Shown here piece by piece: positions 2,589-29,139 of a stretch of DNA of 64,000 bases (positions are counted from its first letter, which is position 1; every line of letters starts with the position of its first letter). Both the position numbers and the translations under genes were made by a program. A model generated the notes under the pieces. That model worked only from the letters and a program-made list of their open reading frames with translations, ran no database searches and had not been told where the DNA came from. This DNA is from Escherichia phage KKP 3954, in the sequence record OR067838.1. One strand, 5' to 3'.

Positions 2589-3182
2589 ATGACAATTTCT
2601 ATTCGTACTTCCATCGTAGGTGTTAAAAGGTTGCCTAATGCTTTGCAAATCACACGTGCTTTGAGGGATACGTTCTCTGCTGTGGATGAGCATAAGATGC
2701 TTGATAATCTGTCAAATTGGCCCTATTTTCATTATTTTAAAAATGAAGACGACGAGTTTATAGATGCTGTTTCTTATGGTTATGATTTCGGTAAGGAGGT
2801 TTCTCCTGAAGAATTTGTAGCTACGGTATTCCCAAATGGTTTCCCTACTCGCAGTAAACGTAAAAAAGGACCAAAAAACAAGAAACGTGCTACTAATAAA
2901 GCTACCATTTTCTTTACTGATGGGACACAGTATACGATTAAAGATTTTGAAGAAGTATCTTATACAGCAGGTGGGAATCTTTCTTTCTACACCATCAAAA
3001 AACAAAACTCTACGTTCAGCCATGTTTCTAACATGATTGAAATGTTAGTAGAAGATATTGAAAGCGTGGCTGTGTTAGGTATGCATAAAAGCTTTTTAAT
3101 TACAAATATTTCAGATTTCAGTGCACGTTTATCTGGCCCTGATTTTGAAGCCACGACCACGCATTTCACTTTTAAGGTGTAA
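2589..3182 (+). CDS. hypothetical protein
   Basis: ORF track; AGGAGAAA RBS upstream. Confidence 0.5.
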   Translation: MTISIRTSIVGVKRLPNALQITRALRDTFSAVDEHKMLDNLSNWPYFHYFKNEDDEFIDAVSYGYDFGKEVSPEEFVATVFPNGFPTRSKRKKGPKNKKRATNKATIFFTDGTQYTIKDFEEVSYTAGGNLSFYTIKKQNSTFSHVSNMIEMLVEDIESVAVLGMHKSFLITNISDFSARLSGPDFEATTTHFTFKV

Positions 3183-3185
3183 GTT

Positions 3186-3776
3186 ATGTATACCGAGAGA
3201 GACTTGCAACTCTTGTGGTGGGAAGTGATGCAGGAAATAAAAGAAGATTTTCCTGTTTACTACAACATGTTACGTGAAGCAGGATATAAAGCTTGTGTTA
3301 GAAACAAAGTGAATAACTCTTTCGGTTGGTGCAACTACCGAGATAAAATTGTTGTTGTAAATTGGCACTTGCATAAGAACTCTACAAGAGATATGATCGT
3401 GGATACAATGAAGCACGAAATTGCTCATGCTATTGATGGTTGTATGGGTAAGTTTAGTCGGCACGGTGCTCATTGGCAAAAACTGGCAGCAGAATTAGGG
3501 GCTAATCCTAAAGCCACTTCCAAAGAGCCGTTGAACCACGAATATAAATATGTTCTTGTTCTGGTAGATAGGTTTGCGACAAGATGTGTTAGAGGTTATA
3601 ATCGTAAACCTAATCGCATGTACCCAGGTAAGCAACCTAATATGTGGTTGAAATCAGATAAAGAAGGGACCGAAGGAAAATTATGGTTGTATAAATGGGA
3701 CGATTGGGTTAAAGTAGCTAAAGAATACGGTGTTTCACCATATATAAGAGATGCAGAAGAGGAGAATGAAGAATGA
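3186..3776 (+). CDS. SprT-like zinc metalloprotease domain protein
   Basis: HEIAH zinc-binding motif followed by HGAHW, as in SprT-like domains; translationally coupled (ATGA overlap) with next gene. Confidence 0.55.
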   Translation: MYTERDLQLLWWEVMQEIKEDFPVYYNMLREAGYKACVRNKVNNSFGWCNYRDKIVVVNWHLHKNSTRDMIVDTMKHEIAHAIDGCMGKFSRHGAHWQKLAAELGANPKATSKEPLNHEYKYVLVLVDRFATRCVRGYNRKPNRMYPGKQPNMWLKSDKEGTEGKLWLYKWDDWVKVAKEYGVSPYIRDAEEENEE

Positions 3777-4885
3777 CAAGTCCATTTTTAAAAGCAGCTA
3801 CTGGTGGTCAGAAGAAGCCTGAAATGAGCGTATTTGCTGCAACAACAGATGCAAGTAAATCTGTATTCGCTCCAAGCGTGTTAGATGCCAGTCCTGTTTA
3901 TGCACCAGCGGCACCGCAAGAAGTTCCAGTTTTGCCTTCTATGACCCGACAAGAGATCGAAGAGATTGGGGCAGAGGCAGGAACAACCTTGCGTTCCTTG
4001 AATGCCGAGGTATTAAAACATCAACGTAGTAATCAAGGAGATCAGATGAGTGAACGACTCACAGCTTTGATTAAACAGGCAAAACAACTTGATCCAAACT
4101 CTATTAAACAAAGCAAAGGTATTACTAAACTCATTAAAAAAGTTATGGGTATGAAAGAAGACCTGTTTGGGGAGTTTGATAATGTTAATAACCGTATTGA
4201 AGAGTTGGTAAAGAACCTTCAAATGGATATTCGCAAAGAAGAAGATTCCTTGGTATATCTTGAAAAGCTACATCAAGCTATTGGACAATATGCCGCAAGT
4301 TTGAACCGAGATATGCAGCTTCTAACAGCAACCTACGAAAAAGAAGAACAAGCTTTGGCTGCTCTTCCAGAAGATGCGGTAGAACAGCGACAAGTGATCC
4401 GAGATACTTTGGATCTTCTGGAGATTCGTATTGCGGATTTAAAAGCATTGCGCCTACTGTGTGTCCAAATGGGACCACGTGTGCAAGGTATGCAAAAAGT
4501 TTCTGCAAGCTTAATGCGATCTGCGCGTAACATAGTAAATAATGTTATTCCTGCTTACTCTGCTAACTTCTCAATGTATATTGAGAGCTTGCGTCAAATG
4601 AAAGCCGCAGAGACGCAGAATAACGTTCTTGATGAATTTAACCTGGCAATTAAACTGGGTAGCGATCTTGCCACACAGAATCAGATCGAAGCAGCAGCAC
4701 TGGCTAACCGTCAAGTGTTGGATATTGAAACTCTGCGTCACGATCAGGAAAACTTGGTTAAGATGTTGGAAGAAACTAACCGCATCAATACGGAAGCCCG
4801 TGCTGCTCGTGTTGATTATATTAATGAAGTTCAATCTCTGGAAGACGGGATGGTAGCTGCTGTGAAACGAGGGCTTGGTAAATGA
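3773..4885 (+). CDS. telA: TelA-like (toxic anion resistance family) protein, alpha-helical/coiled-coil
   Basis: About 370 aa, helical, Q/E/L-rich; size, composition and Ter-gene context fit the TelA/KlaB family; family assignment from memory, not searched. Confidence 0.5.
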   Translation: MTSPFLKAATGGQKKPEMSVFAATTDASKSVFAPSVLDASPVYAPAAPQEVPVLPSMTRQEIEEIGAEAGTTLRSLNAEVLKHQRSNQGDQMSERLTALIKQAKQLDPNSIKQSKGITKLIKKVMGMKEDLFGEFDNVNNRIEELVKNLQMDIRKEEDSLVYLEKLHQAIGQYAASLNRDMQLLTATYEKEEQALAALPEDAVEQRQVIRDTLDLLEIRIADLKALRLLCVQMGPRVQGMQKVSASLMRSARNIVNNVIPAYSANFSMYIESLRQMKAAETQNNVLDEFNLAIKLGSDLATQNQIEAAALANRQVLDIETLRHDQENLVKMLEETNRINTEARAARVDYINEVQSLEDGMVAAVKRGLGK

Positions 4886-21280: not shown

Positions 21281-23956
21281 TTAGTCGTAATATTTCAAAC
21301 CTGTAATGAACTTCGATCCCCAATCCGCACTTGCGGCGGTGAACGTCAACATCCAAGTTGTAGCTGTACCAGTGAAGACCTCTCGTTGCACAATACCATC
21401 AGTGTGGTAAATGTCCACGCCAGTATGTCCATTCTTAGGAATAGTGAAGGTAACAGCACTGGTAGTGTCTCGTGCATAAGAACAAACAAATGGTGTCCCC
21501 GCCCAAACTGGATTTGTCATATCCCCCATCTCAAGCTGTGGAACCCAAGCAATAAGACCTGCCATACCATCTCCTGCGAAAGTGTCTGATCCACTTGCAT
21601 TCAAAGCTATAATCTCATAGGTTATAGATGCTTGTTTGGCAACTGTCACTTTGTGTAGAATTACACGATACCAACCATTCCCCATATCGATTATGTTTGC
21701 ATCTGCACCTGTAAATGTTCCAGCTACAAGATCATAAGTCCCTTCGTTAATCTCATCTCCTGAAGTCAATTTGAGTTTCACTTTAGTGATCCCATCTGGC
21801 TTCAAGAATACGGATGCCGCCCAGTGCTTACCTGCTGTAATATCAGAAGCTGTATTCACTGCTGATAAAATATGTTGTCCTGAAGTTGTAGAAGGTGTTA
21901 ACTTGTAAGTGTTAGCCGTAGTTCCAACCGGAGAGTTGATTGTTGATGCTGTGACTGTCAAGTTCGTCTTCAACCACGGGGAAGCTGTTGTCAAGTTATT
22001 GTTGATAAAGATATGTATACGGTTGGCTGCTACAACACGTCTACCTTGTGGAGTTGTACCAACATATTCTAAAGGTGCTACGGGAGCAGAACTCTCTGTA
22101 GGTACAAGGATATCTCCAGAAGCCCTGGCATAACGGTTACTCCTGTTGACCTTTACATCCGCCGGAATAGTTTCTTGCGTCAAATCATAGTCCATCACAA
22201 TCACCACAGCATTCACTGCGAGATAAGAACTATCTTCGGCAGTTACCACACCTTGATAAGTTGCTCTACAACCGATACGACAATCCCCATCAGCAACCGC
22301 TGTAATAACGCCTGTAACGGGGTCAACTGTTGCTACCGTAGGATCATTAGAGAAATACTCAACAACCATACCAGGTAAGCTTGCTGCCCCTGTTGGCGTT
22401 ATTTCTGCTACCATTGTTTGTGTTGTTCCTACATCCATCGCAGATAAGCTAGGAGTGTAAACGCTCAATGTTGAAGCATATCCTCCAGAGGTATCTGATA
22501 AAGTTGTTCCTTCAGCGTTTAAGGCTGTCATACCTGCATCAAAACCACCTTCTGCATGGAAAGTCATTAAACCAGTAGATGATATTGTCATGTTTGCAGG
22601 GGCAGAAGAAGTGTATTTAATATTGAAAAGTTTACCTCCTTCTGGGCTAACAGAATGTGTCAACTGTTTAGTTCCACCTACAATACAAATTCCTAAAGAA
22701 TCTGTAGTTAAGCCAGTTGCCAGAACATCACCCGTAATCACGGAGCTTGCTATTGGTGTGAATTTATTATAGTTTAGACCACTATTGAACAGATACGAAG
22801 CTTTCCCATCTTTCCAAATACCGGAATAATACATATCTCCATTATAAACGAAAAAGGTTCCTTGATAACCTAATTGGTTAGTAACATCCATATTCAGCGT
22901 ATGAACGCTTGTGAGCTTGTTTATATCCCAAGAACCCACTCCTTCAGGTTTAACTGGTTTTCCCACTTGGAGTGGATCTCCGCTCGCAGAATCATACCCC
23001 AAACCTAAGTTTGCAGTGTAGTTCTTACCAATAGCCCACAAGGAATTATTGATCCCAACGAAAAAAGAGTGGCGGCTTGGTGGAAACTTCCATGTTGAGA
23101 AACCTGCTGCAAAGGTATCCAGTTTAGTGTAGGTTGTTTCTGTATTAGATCTAACATATAAGTAGTTTACCATACCCGTGCCACCGGAGGTATCTCCTAC
23201 AACTATTGTCTGGGAAACTGTATTGATGTAATCTTTGACATACACTGTTTCAGTAGCGGATATCTTGGCATTGACAAAAGCTGTTGTTGTGTTATTATTA
23301 CCTGCTAAACCTTTACTAGCTCCACAAACACGCAAGGTTCCCACATTGTTGACATAAGAGCATTGGTTGTAACCTGCATCAAAAGCAACTGCTGCACTCG
23401 TTATTTGACGAGGAGTAGAAACTTCGTTAGTAGTACTTGCACCTAAACTGCCTACTGTGTTTTGACCCGATCCATAAAGAACGCCACTATTCATTAACCA
23501 GAGAGTGTTATTATATCCTCCCTTAACCTCTTTAAGATTGGCTAAAGAGATAGTCCCCGTTATTACAGATGGAAAGCTGGTCCAAGTAGTTACACATGCA
23601 TCCATACCACCTGCTGCTATAGATCCTACCAACCCTGCTGTCAATCCTGAATATTGCCATCCCCCACTATTAGTTTTAATAATAAAACAACGATCTGCGG
23701 TAAACACATCCGCTACTACAGTAGAAGCTAAGTAGAAATTATTGAATCGTGCACTACGAGTTCCATCTGCAATCTCACCAAAAAGGTTTGCACCTTGAGT
23801 AAACAATCTACCATCGTTAAGCAAAATTGCTAAACTACTGTTAGAATTACCAGCATTGTCTGGGTAATCTAAAGTGATTACTTTTTTAACAATACCCGCT
23901 GGCAGAGGAACGACACCAGTACTGGTCATAATAGTAAATATTGGAATTGGAAACAT
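21281..23956 (-). CDS. tail fiber/tailspike-like protein (receptor-binding candidate)
   Basis: 891 aa, Gly/Thr/Ser/Asn-rich; GGAGGG RBS; last gene of tail block. Confidence 0.55.
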   Translation of the reverse strand: MFPIPIFTIMTSTGVVPLPAGIVKKVITLDYPDNAGNSNSSLAILLNDGRLFTQGANLFGEIADGTRSARFNNFYLASTVVADVFTADRCFIIKTNSGGWQYSGLTAGLVGSIAAGGMDACVTTWTSFPSVITGTISLANLKEVKGGYNNTLWLMNSGVLYGSGQNTVGSLGASTTNEVSTPRQITSAAVAFDAGYNQCSYVNNVGTLRVCGASKGLAGNNNTTTAFVNAKISATETVYVKDYINTVSQTIVVGDTSGGTGMVNYLYVRSNTETTYTKLDTFAAGFSTWKFPPSRHSFFVGINNSLWAIGKNYTANLGLGYDSASGDPLQVGKPVKPEGVGSWDINKLTSVHTLNMDVTNQLGYQGTFFVYNGDMYYSGIWKDGKASYLFNSGLNYNKFTPIASSVITGDVLATGLTTDSLGICIVGGTKQLTHSVSPEGGKLFNIKYTSSAPANMTISSTGLMTFHAEGGFDAGMTALNAEGTTLSDTSGGYASTLSVYTPSLSAMDVGTTQTMVAEITPTGAASLPGMVVEYFSNDPTVATVDPVTGVITAVADGDCRIGCRATYQGVVTAEDSSYLAVNAVVIVMDYDLTQETIPADVKVNRSNRYARASGDILVPTESSAPVAPLEYVGTTPQGRRVVAANRIHIFINNNLTTASPWLKTNLTVTASTINSPVGTTANTYKLTPSTTSGQHILSAVNTASDITAGKHWAASVFLKPDGITKVKLKLTSGDEINEGTYDLVAGTFTGADANIIDMGNGWYRVILHKVTVAKQASITYEIIALNASGSDTFAGDGMAGLIAWVPQLEMGDMTNPVWAGTPFVCSYARDTTSAVTFTIPKNGHTGVDIYHTDGIVQREVFTGTATTWMLTFTAASADWGSKFITGLKYYD

Positions 23957-23997: not shown

Positions 23998-26022
23998 CTA
24001 TCGTGTTACAACAACCATGTCCACGATATCACCCACACCAGGATACGTTAATTGCAAAATTGTTACTGCGTTAGCAGTAGTTGCTATTTCTGTATCATTC
24101 AGTGCTCCATAAGACGCATCTAGTGTAACCGTGTGTCCCGTTGTATCTTGAATCAAATAAATCATTGCTGAAAACGCTTTAGGTTTTGTAGAGCCAGTGA
24201 CACCAGGCCATGCTCCAACTGTCAGAGCGTCAGTTACTGTAACAACATACATATTGGAAGTTCCAGAAGGAGTCCAAGATGCTCCAGAGTTGGTAGTAGT
24301 TGTTTCAAGTTCCATGAAACCTGCTGTAACTCTAGTTGGTGTTATAGCTTCCGTAGGATCTGATCCTGATATTTCGATCCAGTTTCCATCAGAACGACCA
24401 TACGTCAAGCCGTCTTGAGGGGCTTCTGGTATACTAGGAAGAGTTCCTATAAGTGTCCACGTAGAAGAATCTGTTTTCTTAAACACTGCTCCAGTGGTAG
24501 TATTGAAGGCGTAATCATTGATAACACCGTCTCCTGCGACTGGATTAGTTGTTGCTACAAACCACTGTGCGCCGTCCTTACCGTTGGTCCCATCAATACC
24601 GTTGGTTCCGTTTGTTCCAGGATCACCCTTATCTCCTTTATCCCCTTTTTCACCTTTGTCGCCTTTAATACTTCCCATGTCAACAAAAGATGCGGAATTG
24701 GTGTCTTGATCGTAGGTATAGATGTAAAGATTACTAGTGTCTTCAGTTAAGTAGGCATCGCCATAGTTATTGTAAACAGGTAGAGCTTCACTGTTCGGAA
24801 CATGACCTTTAGCTGTAATTGATGTTCCTCCAAGACTACCAACATTCATCCATTCCGTAGCATCTTGAACCCAAACATACAAATCATTATTAATTTTATA
24901 TGCGTCACCTACTTCTCCAGTCGGAGGAAGTTCAGCTTCGCTGTTCAGAACCCCGATAATCTCTAAACCTGATCCTGTTGCACCCACTGGTCCTTGTGGA
25001 CCTAATTCGCCTTGTGGTCCTCGTTCTCCTTGCTCTCCCTTGTCTCCTTTTGGACCTTTAAGCGAGGCAATAAAATCTACTTCTGTCCCTTCATTACCAG
25101 CATCCAGCCAACTTTGATATGCAGATTTCCCTTCATCTCCATCTGTTCCATCTAGACCGTCTTTACCTGCCTCACCTTGTGGACCTTGAGGACCAACAAT
25201 ATTACCCATGTTGACCCAAGCTGTCCCATTGGAGACATAAAGATTACCACTGATAGAATAAGCTTGGCTTACGTTTTCAGAGTTAGGTTGTGGTAAGTTA
25301 CTTGTAGAAGGCAAATCCCCACGATAATCAAAACCATTAGCGTTGACACCAGGTGCACCCTGTGGACCTGTAGGACCAACGTCTCCTTTATCACCTTTTA
25401 TAGAGGCAAGAAAGTCATAAACAGATCCTGTATTACCATCTGCCAACCATACCTCGTAAGCTGATTTCCCTTCTGGTCCAAGAGAAGAAATAAGTTTCCA
25501 AACAGAACCGTCCCAAGCGTAAATCACATCACCTACGATATAACCATCCCCTGCAACGTTACCTGTAGATGGTAGTTCACTAGTGCTTGCTAATGATCCT
25601 TTAATATTAAGTTGAGCACCAGTATCCCCTTTCAAAGAAGCAAGCCATTGTGCTTCTGTTCCAACAAAACCATTATCAAGTGCGATCTGATAAGCCGATT
25701 TACCAGCTTCAGGTATTGCTTCTGACAAATCATCGATCTGTTGTTGCACTGCCGTAAACTTGGCATTGATAATTGCTATATCATCAGCGGTCCCAACACT
25801 TTGCCATGCAAGGGAAGAAATACCACCTGTGGTGGCTGGCGTAGAGTTTGCTGGAACTACTTTAGGAAAAGTTCCTTTCCATTGGTAATAATTCCCTTCT
25901 GCCGCTAACAGCAAAACTTCACGGGAATTACGTAATGTAAAACCTGCCTCAAAGCTGCGACGTTTTCGATAAGTAGCTTCTACCAGATCGGCTATCGCAC
26001 TATTAGGTCTTGTTAAATTCAT
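23998..26022 (-). CDS. collagen-like repeat tail fiber protein
   Basis: Several Gly-X-Y runs (GPQGPQGEAGKDGLDGTDG, GDKGEKGDKGDKGDPG) and three repeats of GKSAYxxWLxxGxxGxxxDFxASLKG. Confidence 0.6.
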   Translation of the reverse strand: MNLTRPNSAIADLVEATYRKRRSFEAGFTLRNSREVLLLAAEGNYYQWKGTFPKVVPANSTPATTGGISSLAWQSVGTADDIAIINAKFTAVQQQIDDLSEAIPEAGKSAYQIALDNGFVGTEAQWLASLKGDTGAQLNIKGSLASTSELPSTGNVAGDGYIVGDVIYAWDGSVWKLISSLGPEGKSAYEVWLADGNTGSVYDFLASIKGDKGDVGPTGPQGAPGVNANGFDYRGDLPSTSNLPQPNSENVSQAYSISGNLYVSNGTAWVNMGNIVGPQGPQGEAGKDGLDGTDGDEGKSAYQSWLDAGNEGTEVDFIASLKGPKGDKGEQGERGPQGELGPQGPVGATGSGLEIIGVLNSEAELPPTGEVGDAYKINNDLYVWVQDATEWMNVGSLGGTSITAKGHVPNSEALPVYNNYGDAYLTEDTSNLYIYTYDQDTNSASFVDMGSIKGDKGEKGDKGDKGDPGTNGTNGIDGTNGKDGAQWFVATTNPVAGDGVINDYAFNTTTGAVFKKTDSSTWTLIGTLPSIPEAPQDGLTYGRSDGNWIEISGSDPTEAITPTRVTAGFMELETTTTNSGASWTPSGTSNMYVVTVTDALTVGAWPGVTGSTKPKAFSAMIYLIQDTTGHTVTLDASYGALNDTEIATTANAVTILQLTYPGVGDIVDMVVVTR

Positions 26023-26083: not shown

Positions 26084-28801
26084 TTAGGTTGTTGGCACAT
26101 CTACTACTGGCGTTGGGCGAATAACCGCAGTATTACCTACAGAAACATTACTGGAATCATTAGGTATGGTTTTAATTCTAACTCCAGCACTTGTAGGCGT
26201 TACAATTGGATCTGCAATGTCTATTTTAACTGGGTTAGTCCACGTATCATTATCTTGATAAGGTGCACGAGTAATAACTGTGTCCAAATCTGCTCCACCT
26301 ACGCCAGCACCAGGAATACGGATACGTGTCCCTGCTGACAGAGGGTAATGATACAACCAAGAAGCATTTGTTGCTGTCCCGTTAGGAGTCAAGTTCTGTG
26401 TCAGGAAGGTATCTCCTGCCTGTGTAGCTCGAATACCGAAAGCTGGGATATCTGGAATATATGCCCCACTTGTTGTTACAAGGAAGAACGTATTATCCGC
26501 CTTGACTATCATATCACCTTTGTCAAACTCTTTCCCTGTTGGGAAATGCATTCCATCAATGTTTCGACTAGGATTAGGCTCTAAGTAATAAACTTTGCCC
26601 GTTGTCCCTACAATAGCTCCAATACCACCTGCGATATTGGTATACATATTAGCTTCAACATTACAGTTGACACGATGAATATCCGAGTAACGGCAACGGC
26701 TCCACTGTGGACGACCAGTAACCATCGTCTTGCCATCTGGGTAACAGTTTACGTTAACCATTTCAAGAACAGATTTTTCTCTACGGAAGAATCCATCATA
26801 AAATGTCCCTGGACCAGATTCAGGTTGACCAACACAATCGAAGATATTACAGGTAATGTTAGACATTGAAAGCCAAGAAGCTATACCGAACAACTGCAAT
26901 GCAGCGCAACGAATATTTTCAAAGCTAACTCTGTTTTCATAACCTGGACCAGCGGAAACTCCCGCAAAAACACGCCCAGTTTTGGTGTGAATGTTACGAA
27001 CAGAATAGTTAAAGCATGGATTTGAAGGTCTGCCCTGTGCCGGAACTACCGGATTACCTTCTTCGTCCAGAACTGCGTTAGTTCCCCACTCCAAATAAAT
27101 CATACGGATATTACTTGCAAGTGTGCTACCGTCTGTTTTAGGCTCTCCATAAACACCGTCAATCGTAAAATCTTTACTTCCATACATTACAACTGCGCCA
27201 GTTGCCAAACCTGTCCCAACAGATACAGTCTGGTCTGGATCGCCATGAATGTTTTCGATAGAGATATTACGACCAACTTCTACATGGACAATCTGACGAC
27301 AACGTTTTGCAAAAACGTTACGAATTGTAATATTCTTGCAATATTGATCATCAGGGATTCCGTAACCATATGGTCCTTTACCAGCTACACCGATACCGAT
27401 ACCCCAGTTGGACAGAGGAATAGGAGCGTTAGTCCCATCGATATTAGACAGGTAAATATTCTCAATCACACAACCATCGTCATAATGTTTATTGATGACG
27501 TTCAGTTCTATTGCATCACCTTGCATGTCCATGAAGGTAAGGTTACGGAAGACACCACGTGTTACTGGTTCCCCTGTTCCTTGTTGAAGGATGCCATACA
27601 ACCCGTTTTTAAAAATACAGTTATCAATTTCAAAAATACCTGATATTGGGTTGCCTTGGAATACCAAGCTACCAACTTGACCTGCGCGAGGAGCACCGTC
27701 CCACAAACAATCGAACATGCGCACAGCACCACCCCAATACATAACACGAGAGTTACGGAAAGTTGTGCCTTCTACTGTAGCATTTTGCACACGATAGTCG
27801 CGTTGACCACGGAACACACCCCCACGCAAAGTGATACCTTGAATATCAAAAGAGCTTGTCGTGAAAGTCATATCGCAACCGTAAGCATCGAGAATCTTGC
27901 TTTTCGAAGCTTTTGCTGCTAACAGTGCCGCTTGGAAAGCTGCTTCTGGTGTGGTATATGTTGTTGTGTTGTTAGCAAATTCTGACAAGTAGACAACATC
28001 GAATAAATCGTTGTATGTTCCACCACGAGGGGTTAACAGTCCTTCTGTATTGGTCAGAACCCATGCATTTGGACCTAATCCACCGCTTGTCTCCAATGTA
28101 TCAGAGGCCAAAATACTTTTTGGTAAACTTCCAGCCCAACGATAACGACCAGCACCACGTCCAATCGTCTGATTTTTAGCTGTCAGAGTTACGTTATTAC
28201 CAAAGCTTGTAGGCAAATGAACAAACTGTCCACGTTCAACAGCTAGTGCAGAAAGATCTACAGACCCCCCAGAATAAGTCATTACTCCAGAAACAGACAA
28301 GGATGTTAAAGTTCCTGTGATGTTAGGAGGTAATGTGTAGGAAGACTGTGCTACTGGATCATACAGAGCTTTAATCCCTGTTAACGATTGACCTGCTGTT
28401 GCGTAAGCCACCTCATCATCTAACAAACCATATTTACGAGCAATAGTTTGCAGAGGGACTTTATCCATGCTTTCTGTTAGTTCTTCCGTTTTTGTTTCTA
28501 AACTAACAAGACGGTTCTCTAGATTAGGATCTGTATCTGCTGAAGCTACGATTTTACCAATATAAGCAAAAAGCTTGTTTGGTAGTCCTGTTGCAGGATC
28601 GTGTCCCAAAGGTTCAGATAAGATGATCTTACTATCTTCTATACGGAAAGCTTCTCCCAGAACCTGAATAACACCGTTGATAGTAACAATAGCACTGTCA
28701 AAAATATAAGGAGGACTAATTACTGTTTCATAACCCGTTGCACCAGAATATACCCACGGGGTGACTTCTGTTGCTAATTGTTCTGTTTTCAGTCCCCACA
28801 A
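26084..28801 (-). CDS. tailspike protein with parallel beta-helix (pectate lyase-like) repeats; probably the C-terminal body of a gene whose N-terminus is 28819..29139
   Basis: 905 aa with beta-helix-like repeats (NITIRNVF, NISIENIHGD); TTG start without RBS; frame open upstream into previous ORF. Confidence 0.55.
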   Translation of the reverse strand: MWGLKTEQLATEVTPWVYSGATGYETVISPPYIFDSAIVTINGVIQVLGEAFRIEDSKIILSEPLGHDPATGLPNKLFAYIGKIVASADTDPNLENRLVSLETKTEELTESMDKVPLQTIARKYGLLDDEVAYATAGQSLTGIKALYDPVAQSSYTLPPNITGTLTSLSVSGVMTYSGGSVDLSALAVERGQFVHLPTSFGNNVTLTAKNQTIGRGAGRYRWAGSLPKSILASDTLETSGGLGPNAWVLTNTEGLLTPRGGTYNDLFDVVYLSEFANNTTTYTTPEAAFQAALLAAKASKSKILDAYGCDMTFTTSSFDIQGITLRGGVFRGQRDYRVQNATVEGTTFRNSRVMYWGGAVRMFDCLWDGAPRAGQVGSLVFQGNPISGIFEIDNCIFKNGLYGILQQGTGEPVTRGVFRNLTFMDMQGDAIELNVINKHYDDGCVIENIYLSNIDGTNAPIPLSNWGIGIGVAGKGPYGYGIPDDQYCKNITIRNVFAKRCRQIVHVEVGRNISIENIHGDPDQTVSVGTGLATGAVVMYGSKDFTIDGVYGEPKTDGSTLASNIRMIYLEWGTNAVLDEEGNPVVPAQGRPSNPCFNYSVRNIHTKTGRVFAGVSAGPGYENRVSFENIRCAALQLFGIASWLSMSNITCNIFDCVGQPESGPGTFYDGFFRREKSVLEMVNVNCYPDGKTMVTGRPQWSRCRYSDIHRVNCNVEANMYTNIAGGIGAIVGTTGKVYYLEPNPSRNIDGMHFPTGKEFDKGDMIVKADNTFFLVTTSGAYIPDIPAFGIRATQAGDTFLTQNLTPNGTATNASWLYHYPLSAGTRIRIPGAGVGGADLDTVITRAPYQDNDTWTNPVKIDIADPIVTPTSAGVRIKTIPNDSSNVSVGNTAVIRPTPVVDVPTT

Positions 28802-28818
28802 TACCCAGTTATTATCCC

Positions 28819-29139
28819 CTACTGGAGAATACCTTGCATAGGGATTGGGTTTACCAATGTAGCATTAGGAGCATAATAATAACCGCTCAATACCCCATTC
28901 TGGAAATAACGCAGTTGGTTAAAAACCGTTTCATTTGTGCCTTGCGCCCAATCCAATGGACTTTTAAAGAAAAAGTTGTCAACAAGGGCTTTTCTCAGGG
29001 TTGGTATCAACCCTGATTCTGTTTCAATACTCTCTGTAGCACTTCCATTAATAACATCATGGAGTTGGTTAGACGAGAAAATAACCAGATCTACGCCCTG
29101 TTCAAGAGACGTTGCTGGATATGTTGGGAATGTTGCCAT
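28819..29139 (-). CDS. tailspike N-terminal domain (likely same gene as 26084..28801, separated by a -1 frame break)
   Basis: ATG with AAGGGG RBS; downstream ORF frame is open from 28862. Confidence 0.5.
   Translation of the reverse strand: MATFPTYPATSLEQGVDLVIFSSNQLHDVINGSATESIETESGLIPTLRKALVDNFFFKSPLDWAQGTNETVFNQLRYFQNGVLSGYYYAPNATLVNPIPMQGILQ

Follow-up and report, generated by a model that had tools for sequence, protein, structure and literature searches.

What kind of protein is encoded by the minus-strand segment 23998..26022 of Escherichia phage KKP 3954, and do its internal repeats belong to a shaft whose length changes from one isolate to another? Positions refer to the 64,000-nucleotide (nt) stretch of sequence record OR067838.1 analyzed here (the window, G+C content ~39%). 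A preliminary description, made from the letters of the sequence, had proposed a collagen-like tail fiber with a modular shaft that was built by internal duplication and whose number of repeats may vary between isolates. The segment is exactly one open reading frame (ORF), from ATG to stop, of 674 amino acids (aa). Its product is very likely one of the co-expressed side (lateral) tail fibers of a phAPEC8-type myovirus, the ortholog of gp151 of phage phi92, which would be attached by a Tail_spike_N docking domain and organized as a trimer resembling beads on a string. The collagen-like and modular character is borne out by the PHROG 15437 match, the GenBank labels, the orthology with phi92 gp151 and the Pfam Collagen family; the proposed origin and variability of the repeats fare less well, as discussed below.

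The gene shares 97–99.5% DNA identity with its counterparts in ~60 genomes of Phapecoctavirus, the phAPEC8-like E. coli myoviruses of roughly 150 kb, in which near-identical genes are labeled in GenBank as tail fiber protein, tail spike protein, hypothetical protein or 'collagen triple helix repeat protein'. It is essentially the same as these published, annotated genes and in this sense already known. The phAPEC8 counterpart, G377_gp087 (DNA identity 97.6%), is the penultimate gene of the late tail operon, with a tailspike that degrades colanic acid on one side and an 891-aa RCC1/Big_2 fiber protein on the other. The match to PHROG 15437, 'tail fiber protein', covers residues 1–674. Comparison with phi92 gp151 reveals 406 identical residues out of 676 (60%) over the full length and no rearrangement, and each of the two genes follows that of the colanidase, the upstream neighbor in the window being the ortholog of the phi92 colanidase gp150 (PDB entry 6E0V, E 1e-79). 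With both full-length collinear similarity and a conserved gene position, the 674-aa protein and phi92 gp151 are orthologs. In a 2025 paper on the Stephanstirmvirinae (PMC12695924) the gene is named TfpM2, described as encoding 681 aa and used for phylogeny only. The phi92 and BASEL papers place the locus among the co-expressed lateral fibers, phi92 gp151 being one fiber candidate of a multivalent adsorption apparatus, and the BASEL paper leaves unclear which genes make which lateral fiber. Our literature search found no paper that joins Phapecoctavirus, tail fiber and collagen, and the repeats of the TfpM2-type fiber protein are not taken up in the rV5 or BASEL papers.

Internal repetition of the protein is real: a self dot-plot (BLOSUM62, 15-aa windows with a score of at least 32, 50 shuffles) gave 324 off-diagonal windows, whereas shuffled sequences gave 2.1 on average and never more than 9; the top score of a window was 58, compared with at most 44 after shuffling. 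The outcome that the preliminary description had named as refuting, a dot-plot devoid of significant internal repetition, thus did not occur. Three units beginning with GKSAY, hereafter A units, are indeed present at aa 107, 185 and 298. Their conserved core (G-K-S-A-Y ... L-K-G) comprises 26 aa and not the approximately 35 aa first proposed, and the copies lie scattered, at distances of 78 and 113 aa, rather than in tandem. The pattern WL...DF..ASLKG initially ascribed to all of them describes copies 2 and 3, whereas copy 1 reads IAL...QWLASLKG; in the same way, a collagen-like run directly follows copies 2 and 3 (6 and 10 triplets, respectively), whereas copy 1 is followed by two triplets only (GDT GAQ). 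The multiple Gly-X-Y tracts resolve into four uninterrupted ones of 6, 8, 10 and 11 triplets, 35 triplets or ~30 nm in total, to which Pfam Collagen (PF01391) assigns 46.4 bits (cut-off 27.2). The tracts contain 29% charged residues and 9.5% Pro, and there are 10 KGD/KGE motifs in the protein. The dot-plot also reveals a second repeat family, B, of ~46 aa, that the preliminary description had missed, with the motif LP..G..GDaY.v...lYvW.g..W..vG and the consensus GxGLxIxGxxxxxxxLPxxGxxGDAYxIxxxLYVWxGxxWxNxG. That description likewise lacked the Tail_spike_N domain at the N-terminus, the foldon-like hairpin and the knob at the C-terminus.

From the N- to the C-terminus, the order of modules is docking domain, helical neck, A1, B1, A2, c6, B2, c8, A3, c10, B3, B4, c11, B5, hairpin, linker and knob, c denoting a collagen tract with its number of triplets; all lie, like the gene, on the minus strand. 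Units A and B were delimited with hidden Markov models (HMMs) built from the units of the 674-aa protein and iterated on its 120 best homologs. Secondary structure was taken from an AlphaFold2 (AF2) model of the full-length monomer, which is poor overall (predicted local distance difference test, pLDDT, 65.5; predicted template modeling score, pTM, 0.24) and usable for local secondary structure only. In this model A units consist of two short helices and B units, B5 included, of four strands (pLDDT ~80–86), and the Gly-X-Y tracts stay under a pLDDT of 50, which is what one expects of segments able to fold only in a trimer. The docking domain (aa 12–77, 25792..25989) precedes a short neck (aa 80–105, 25708..25785) that is modeled as one helix (82–102) and is probably a coiled coil. 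It is followed by A1 (GKSAYQIALDNGFVGTEAQWLASLKG, aa 107–132, 25627..25704; A-HMM domain E 4e-18, helices 110–116 and 123–129) and by the four-strand β module B1 (aa 135–180, 25483..25620; B-HMM E 4e-18), whose predicted strands span residues 139–144, 159–163, 166–170 and 175–178 with a pLDDT of ~82–86. A2 (GKSAYEVWLADGNTGSVYDFLASIKG, aa 185–210, 25393..25470; A-HMM E 9e-14, helices 188–194 and 201–209) ends in the Gly residue with which collagen tract 1 begins (6 triplets, aa 210–227, 25342..25395). After B2 (aa 229–276, 25195..25338; B-HMM E 2e-16, four predicted strands), collagen tract 2 (8 triplets, aa 277–300, 25123..25194) runs in register into the GKS of A3 (GKSAYQSWLDAGNEGTEVDFIASLKG, aa 298–323, 25054..25131; A-HMM E 9e-15, helices 301–307 and 314–321), from which the uninterrupted Gly-X-Y repeats of tract 3 emerge (10 triplets, aa 323–352, 24967..25056). 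Two adjacent β modules, B3 (aa 350–398, 24829..24975; B-HMM E 1e-18) and B4 with a longer insert (aa 399–452, 24667..24828; B-HMM E 3e-12), both with AF2 strands, separate it from tract 4, the most variable in length (11 triplets, aa 454–486, 24565..24663). B1 to B4 are the four copies that are significant with the HMM. The fifth, B5 (aa 487–528, 24439..24564), is a degenerate B-like module that the B-HMM does not detect and that was recognized by eye, by MAFFT alignment with B1–B4 and from its four predicted strands (487–490, 504–507, 512–516 and 522–527). The shaft is followed by the foldon-like β hairpin (IPEAPQDGLTYGRSDGNWIEIS, aa 531–552, 24367..24432) and, after a linker, by the β-sandwich knob (aa 572–674, 24001..24309). 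Conservation varies rather little along the protein; the docking domain and the A units are the best conserved parts, and B3, the linker and the knob are less so. Phi92 gp151 has the same arrangement, with docking domain, A-B-A-c-B-c-A-c-B-B-c-B, hairpin and knob, likewise downstream of the colanidase; it differs only in triplet counts (653 aa compared with 674 aa here) and in point substitutions.

The docking domain is assigned to Tail_spike_N (PF18668), which scores 70.5 bits in Pfam against a cut-off of 25. A search of PDB sequences matches aa 17–89 with the N-terminal parts of CBA120 TSP1/3/4, G7C gp63.1 and 9vvr (phmmer E 1.8e-13 to 1e-6), and Foldseek retrieves the same CBA120 and G7C spike N-domains with a probability of 0.99–1.00. 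In fold alignments the PF18668 domain is 36–39% identical over ~80 residues to those of CBA120 TSP1-4 and G7C gp63.1-gp66. In CBA120 and G7C it is reportedly the N-terminal region through which the spikes are attached to each other or to the baseplate. Whereas those proteins continue into enzymatic β-helix or esterase bodies, the 674-aa protein continues into a non-enzymatic fiber.

At the other end, the hairpin was recognized from its resemblance to T4 fibritin foldon chains, with which phmmer gives weak matches (E 0.012–0.12), and from AF2, which places two strands at 541–544 and 547–550. The hairpin motif EAPxDGxxYxRxxGxW also occurs in arrays in unrelated metagenome proteins (P0139, P0142 and P0145), with up to 14 matched stretches per protein according to HMMER and 8–11 copies by a strict pattern. 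This suggests that the T4 'foldon' may be one instance of a common, repeated fiber hairpin and that aa 531–552 would be a generic hairpin of this type rather than specifically a foldon. The knob is assigned to PF26209 (Phage_phiTE_241_C) by way of a precomputed Pfam match on a 98%-identical homolog (P0001), the local Pfam scan giving no match. Moreover, aa 560–671 match the C-terminus of the phiTE fiber (9cuy_g residues 680–790, phmmer E 1.4e-7), and phiTE is also retrieved from BFVD (K9L5R6, E 7e-13); judged by these matches the C-terminal domain can be regarded as a homolog of that of the phiTE fiber gp241. Entry 9CUY was set aside as an experimental structure of the knob, since the phiTE paper models only N-terminal fiber residues. 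An AF2 model of the C-terminal 145 aa, based on 36 sequences, reaches a pLDDT of 88.9 and a pTM of 0.72 and consists of the hairpin and a β-sandwich knob. Among its 86 Foldseek matches in the PDB only the one to the capsid spike gp52 of phage Pa223 is significant (E 5e-5), and none of the 86 is a TNF, C1q or BclA chain; 236 matches in BFVD are mostly annotated tail fibers. When 1.84 billion representatives were searched exhaustively with these 145 residues, for which a word-indexed search had given only three fragments, the knob was located at the extreme C-terminus of ~20 other 50%-identity fiber clusters (234–1174 aa) without A, B or collagen units. The knob thus appears to be a tip that is exchangeable among many phage fibers.

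Pa223 gp52 (PDB entry 9NY6) is the only solved structure matched significantly outside the docking domain, with E 2e-4 for the full-length model; the other Foldseek matches of that model, apart from the TSP N-domains, were discarded as noise. Gp52 is a homotrimer with a β-rich stalk, its C-terminal knob has been called TNF-like by those who described it, and the authors of the 2026 cryo-electron microscopy (cryo-EM) study of phi92 found their AlphaFold 3 (AF3) models of gp140 and gp151 to resemble it. The two proteins are nevertheless only 14% identical in sequence, gp52 sits on the three-fold axes of the capsid by means of an asymmetric N-terminal segment, and it possesses neither collagen tracts nor A units nor a Tail_spike_N domain. 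In the C1q/TNF family and in Bacillus BclA, a trimeric collagen stalk carries a small β-sandwich head that nucleates the trimer and binds a ligand. The stalk-plus-head design of the 674-aa protein is similar, by analogy only; the link is indirect, passing through the description of Pa223 gp52, and is not evidence of membership in that family.

Taken together, these modules suggest the following architecture. Three chains would form one thin homotrimeric fiber, which the Tail_spike_N domain would dock, as in CBA120 and G7C, onto a branched assembly of tailspikes and fibers at the baseplate. A plausible docking partner is the neighboring colanidase, in which the same Tail_spike_N domain is situated further inside the sequence. 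Beyond the docking domain and a short helical neck, the shaft would consist of small trimeric nodes, namely three A units (helix-turn-helix, 26 aa) and five B units (four-strand β, ~46 aa), joined without linkers by four short collagen triple helices acting as thin spacers. As A units start (G-K-S) and end (L-K-G) in the Gly-X-Y register, such nodes could hold the chains in register and nucleate the helices. The latter, hydroxyproline-free and rich in KGD/KGE, are probably stabilized by KGD/KGE ion pairs. With the eight nodes added to ~30 nm of collagen, the whole would be expected to measure roughly 50–70 nm. The foldon-like hairpin would clamp the end of the shaft, and the β-sandwich knob of ~100 aa, presumably the distal tip, is the likely receptor contact. 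A number of observations weigh against this architecture. In the 2026 cryo-EM work on phi92 the fibers were unresolved, and neither the AF3 model of gp151 nor any other candidate fitted the fiber II density. The structure predictions concern monomers only (full-length pTM 0.24), and the best fold match is a capsid spike and not a tail fiber. The foldon assignment is weak (E ~0.01), Pfam Fibritin_C (PF07921) giving no match to the 674-aa protein at E ≤ 1 although relatives match. Finally, scanning PDB sequences with the A profile yielded only spurious half-matches to ankyrin repeats (DARPin), and with the B profile a single marginal match, to the phiKZ inner-capsid protein gp184 (E 9e-4), judged uninformative.

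The likeness of the C-terminal part to Pa223 gp52 raises the possibility of a head or neck fiber, i.e. a capsid spike of that kind or a whisker like T4 fibritin, which would act as an adhesin anchored to the capsid or collar or as an assembly aid. This would agree with the foldon-like motif, best known from T4 fibritin, and with the GenBank note for phi92, in which the N-terminal domain is called a 'potential capsid binding domain'. We consider it quite unlikely, as the likeness to gp52 is limited to the knob and the hairpin and does not include the capsid-attachment segment, hundreds of annotated tail fibers bear the knob fold, the gene is located within the tail fiber/baseplate operon between the colanidase tailspike and another fiber gene, and the N-terminal domain is the Tail_spike_N of the baseplate-attached tailspikes CBA120 TSP1/3/4 and G7C gp63.1. 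The same N-terminal domain, common to true tailspikes, could in turn be taken for the mark of an enzymatically active tailspike (depolymerase), in line with the label 'tail spike protein' in ESCO5, REC, UP17 and Ro121c4YLVW. Pfam, NCBIfam, PDB sequence and fold searches, however, revealed no β-helix, hydrolase or lyase domain, only shaft modules and the ~100-aa knob come after the docking domain, and the real enzyme of the locus is the product of the neighboring gene, the ortholog of the phi92 colanidase gp150; a depolymerase is accordingly extremely unlikely.

As for the history of the repeats, a recent internal duplication, with a shaft whose repeat number differs between isolates through recombination or slippage, would account for the clear homology of the A units with one another. 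The internal duplication invoked in the preliminary description is only weakly supported, given how diverged the units are and how common in phage fibers. Pairwise, the A units are 50–65% identical in protein and 56–65% in DNA, their longest common exact DNA runs are 5–8 nt, and only about every second identical residue is encoded by the same codon. DNA so diverged offers no substrate that could drive homologous recombination or slippage; the sole short DNA-level repeats of the gene (GDKGEKGDKGDKGD) are confined to collagen sequence, in tract 4. Nor does the number of repeats change among isolates as had been suggested. Among the 30 best matches, 29 span 2024–2025 nt, the exception being SKA64, as do the 23 matches from the genus in a sample spread more widely, and each of the 13 full-length proteins listed from the 168-member cluster at 90% identity has 674 aa. 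The order A-B-A-c-B-c-A-c-B-B-c is unchanged in orthologs down to 58–60% identity, including phi92 gp151. The only difference between lineages is the number of Gly-X-Y triplets, 5–11 in tract 2, 8–10 in tract 3 and from fewer than 4 up to 13 in tract 4, for an ortholog length of 653–681 aa; this, too, might be counted in favor of a recently expanded, variable shaft.

Two records deviate from this constancy and could be cited as copy-number variants. Escherichia phage SKA64 (OM362897.1, locus 201–2300) carries a 76-nt tandem duplication of A1, which is out of frame and splits the gene, so that in GenBank only a 5'-truncated coding sequence of ~550 codons is annotated; this 'extra repeat' allele, the only one seen, is non-functional or an assembly artefact. 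In vB_EcoM_EP57 (OR544956.1, gene 3001–4539), an in-frame deletion of 486 nt leaves a 512-aa allele without aa 319–480, so that B3 and B4 are lost together with two collagen tracts and the last part of A3. The EP57 record departs from its relatives elsewhere, too: its colanidase falls into two pieces (238 + 482 aa), its RCC1 fiber has 542 aa compared with 891, and its genome measures 130.7 kb compared with ~150 kb, which points to a defective or mis-assembled record. To regard the EP57 allele as a natural short-shaft variant was rejected as unsafe, the adjoining fiber genes being truncated as well. Neither record is evidence of functional variation in copy number. With units diverged in DNA and a constant length, the gene does not resemble a copy-number-variable (contingency-type) locus, and the absence of repeat variation from isolate to isolate means that it is neither hypervariable nor phase-variable. 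A recent duplication is thus largely refuted and, in our estimation, very unlikely. The many different orders in which A and B units are found across homologs, together with their low DNA identity, indicate that they are ancient, common building blocks, either duplicated long ago or assembled by shuffling, rather than a recent local expansion.

The wide distribution of these blocks emerges from the HMM searches. In the 120 best homologs there are 628 copies of A and 664 of B, from 0 to 19 A and from 0 to 11 B per protein, and adjacent modules abut without linkers, the median gaps being -3 to +4 aa. In 396 of 633 A units the final Gly opens a run of three or more triplets, and for 251 of 633 a run of at least three triplets precedes the unit in register; Gly-X-Y runs flank two thirds to three quarters of the B units. 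Searches with tblastn and blastn located the units in fiber or minor tail proteins of Pectobacterium, Erwinia, Ralstonia and Pseudomonas jumbo phages as well as in phages of Acinetobacter, Cellulophaga, Mammaliicoccus/Staphylococcus, Mycobacterium, Gordonia, Microbacterium and Streptomyces. Scans of the 674-aa protein against Pfam and NCBIfam show no family at the A or B units. DUF2934 was considered for A and rejected as a resemblance only: A-rich relatives pass the Pfam cut-off through the sum of weak matches, and the 674-aa protein fails it. It is conceivable, if on balance doubtful, that A and B form a pan-phage construction kit for fibers, reaching from Escherichia myoviruses through jumbo phages to the minor tail proteins of actinobacteriophages, in which A would be a dedicated in-register staple that nucleates and aligns very short, hydroxyproline-free collagen helices.

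At the DNA level, A1 (25612..25711 in the window, nt 312–411 of the gene) gives direct blastn matches of 77–87% identity over 60–100 nt in unrelated phages, namely Acinetobacter phages TaPaz and phiAB441, Pseudomonas jumbo phages D6, BRkr and HHBS36_1, and Cellulophaga phage phi19:2. Such matches between phages would reflect either an unusually strong constraint on the motif or its exchange.

A precedent for such a fiber is provided by EPclA and EPclB, the collagen-like side-tail proteins of prophages of enterohaemorrhagic E. coli, which experiments revealed to be trimeric, triple-helical and thermally stable, with a dumbbell shape (Ghosh 2012, PMC3368898). Like the 674-aa protein, they combine short, hydroxyproline-free collagen of the bacterial type with separate flanking trimerization domains (PMC3368898), and aa 275–351 are 47% identical to homologs from Stx phages (tblastn). 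The organization is different: whereas the EPcl proteins have one collagen domain together with PfN, a leucine-poor coiled coil (PCoil) and PfC, the 674-aa protein interleaves four short tracts with A and B nodes and has Tail_spike_N as an anchor at one end and the PF26209 knob at the other. The Pfam scan of the protein detected neither PfN nor PCoil nor PfC (Phage_fiber_C), so that only the collagen tract is common to both. Another collagen-like fiber, FibU of the staphylococcal phage 80alpha, is non-essential.

Both neighbors of the gene deserve comment. On the upstream side (26084..29139, minus strand), the colanidase tailspike is split into ORFs of 106 and 905 aa, with a break near 28801–28819, whereas the phAPEC8 colanidase is one gene of 1017 aa. 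The split is caused by a 2-nt insertion (ATGCAAGGTATTCTCCAGTAG, giving a stop), the region measuring 161 nt in the window compared with 159 nt in all 38 related records; this frameshift reflects a sequencing error or else a genuine null allele. On the downstream side (21281..23956, minus strand), the gene encodes an 891-aa protein, 'TfpM1', with an N-terminal RCC1-like β-propeller and Big_2 Ig-like domains (PHROG 11922, 'tail protein'), which is absent from phi92-like phages (PMC12695924). The GC skew turns from positive to negative near 20–22 kb, where this last minus-strand late tail gene ends (21281); at the corresponding point of phAPEC8 the tail operon meets oppositely oriented genes.

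For the phages themselves, the gene is a well-conserved and already annotated fiber of a common coliphage genus. The map of its domains (docking domain, shaft and exchangeable knob) indicates to engineers where to cut in a group of phages that is valued for its broad host range. The A and B modules of the shaft are very widespread, yet they go unmatched when the 674-aa protein is scanned with Pfam and NCBIfam, and A is without a solved structure. The in-register junctions between A units and collagen suggest a testable way in which phages may stabilize very short collagen helices. If A is indeed an in-register staple, phages would possess in it a natural equivalent of the foldon-collagen fusions made by engineering, one that could serve as a compact design tool for short, stable triple helices.

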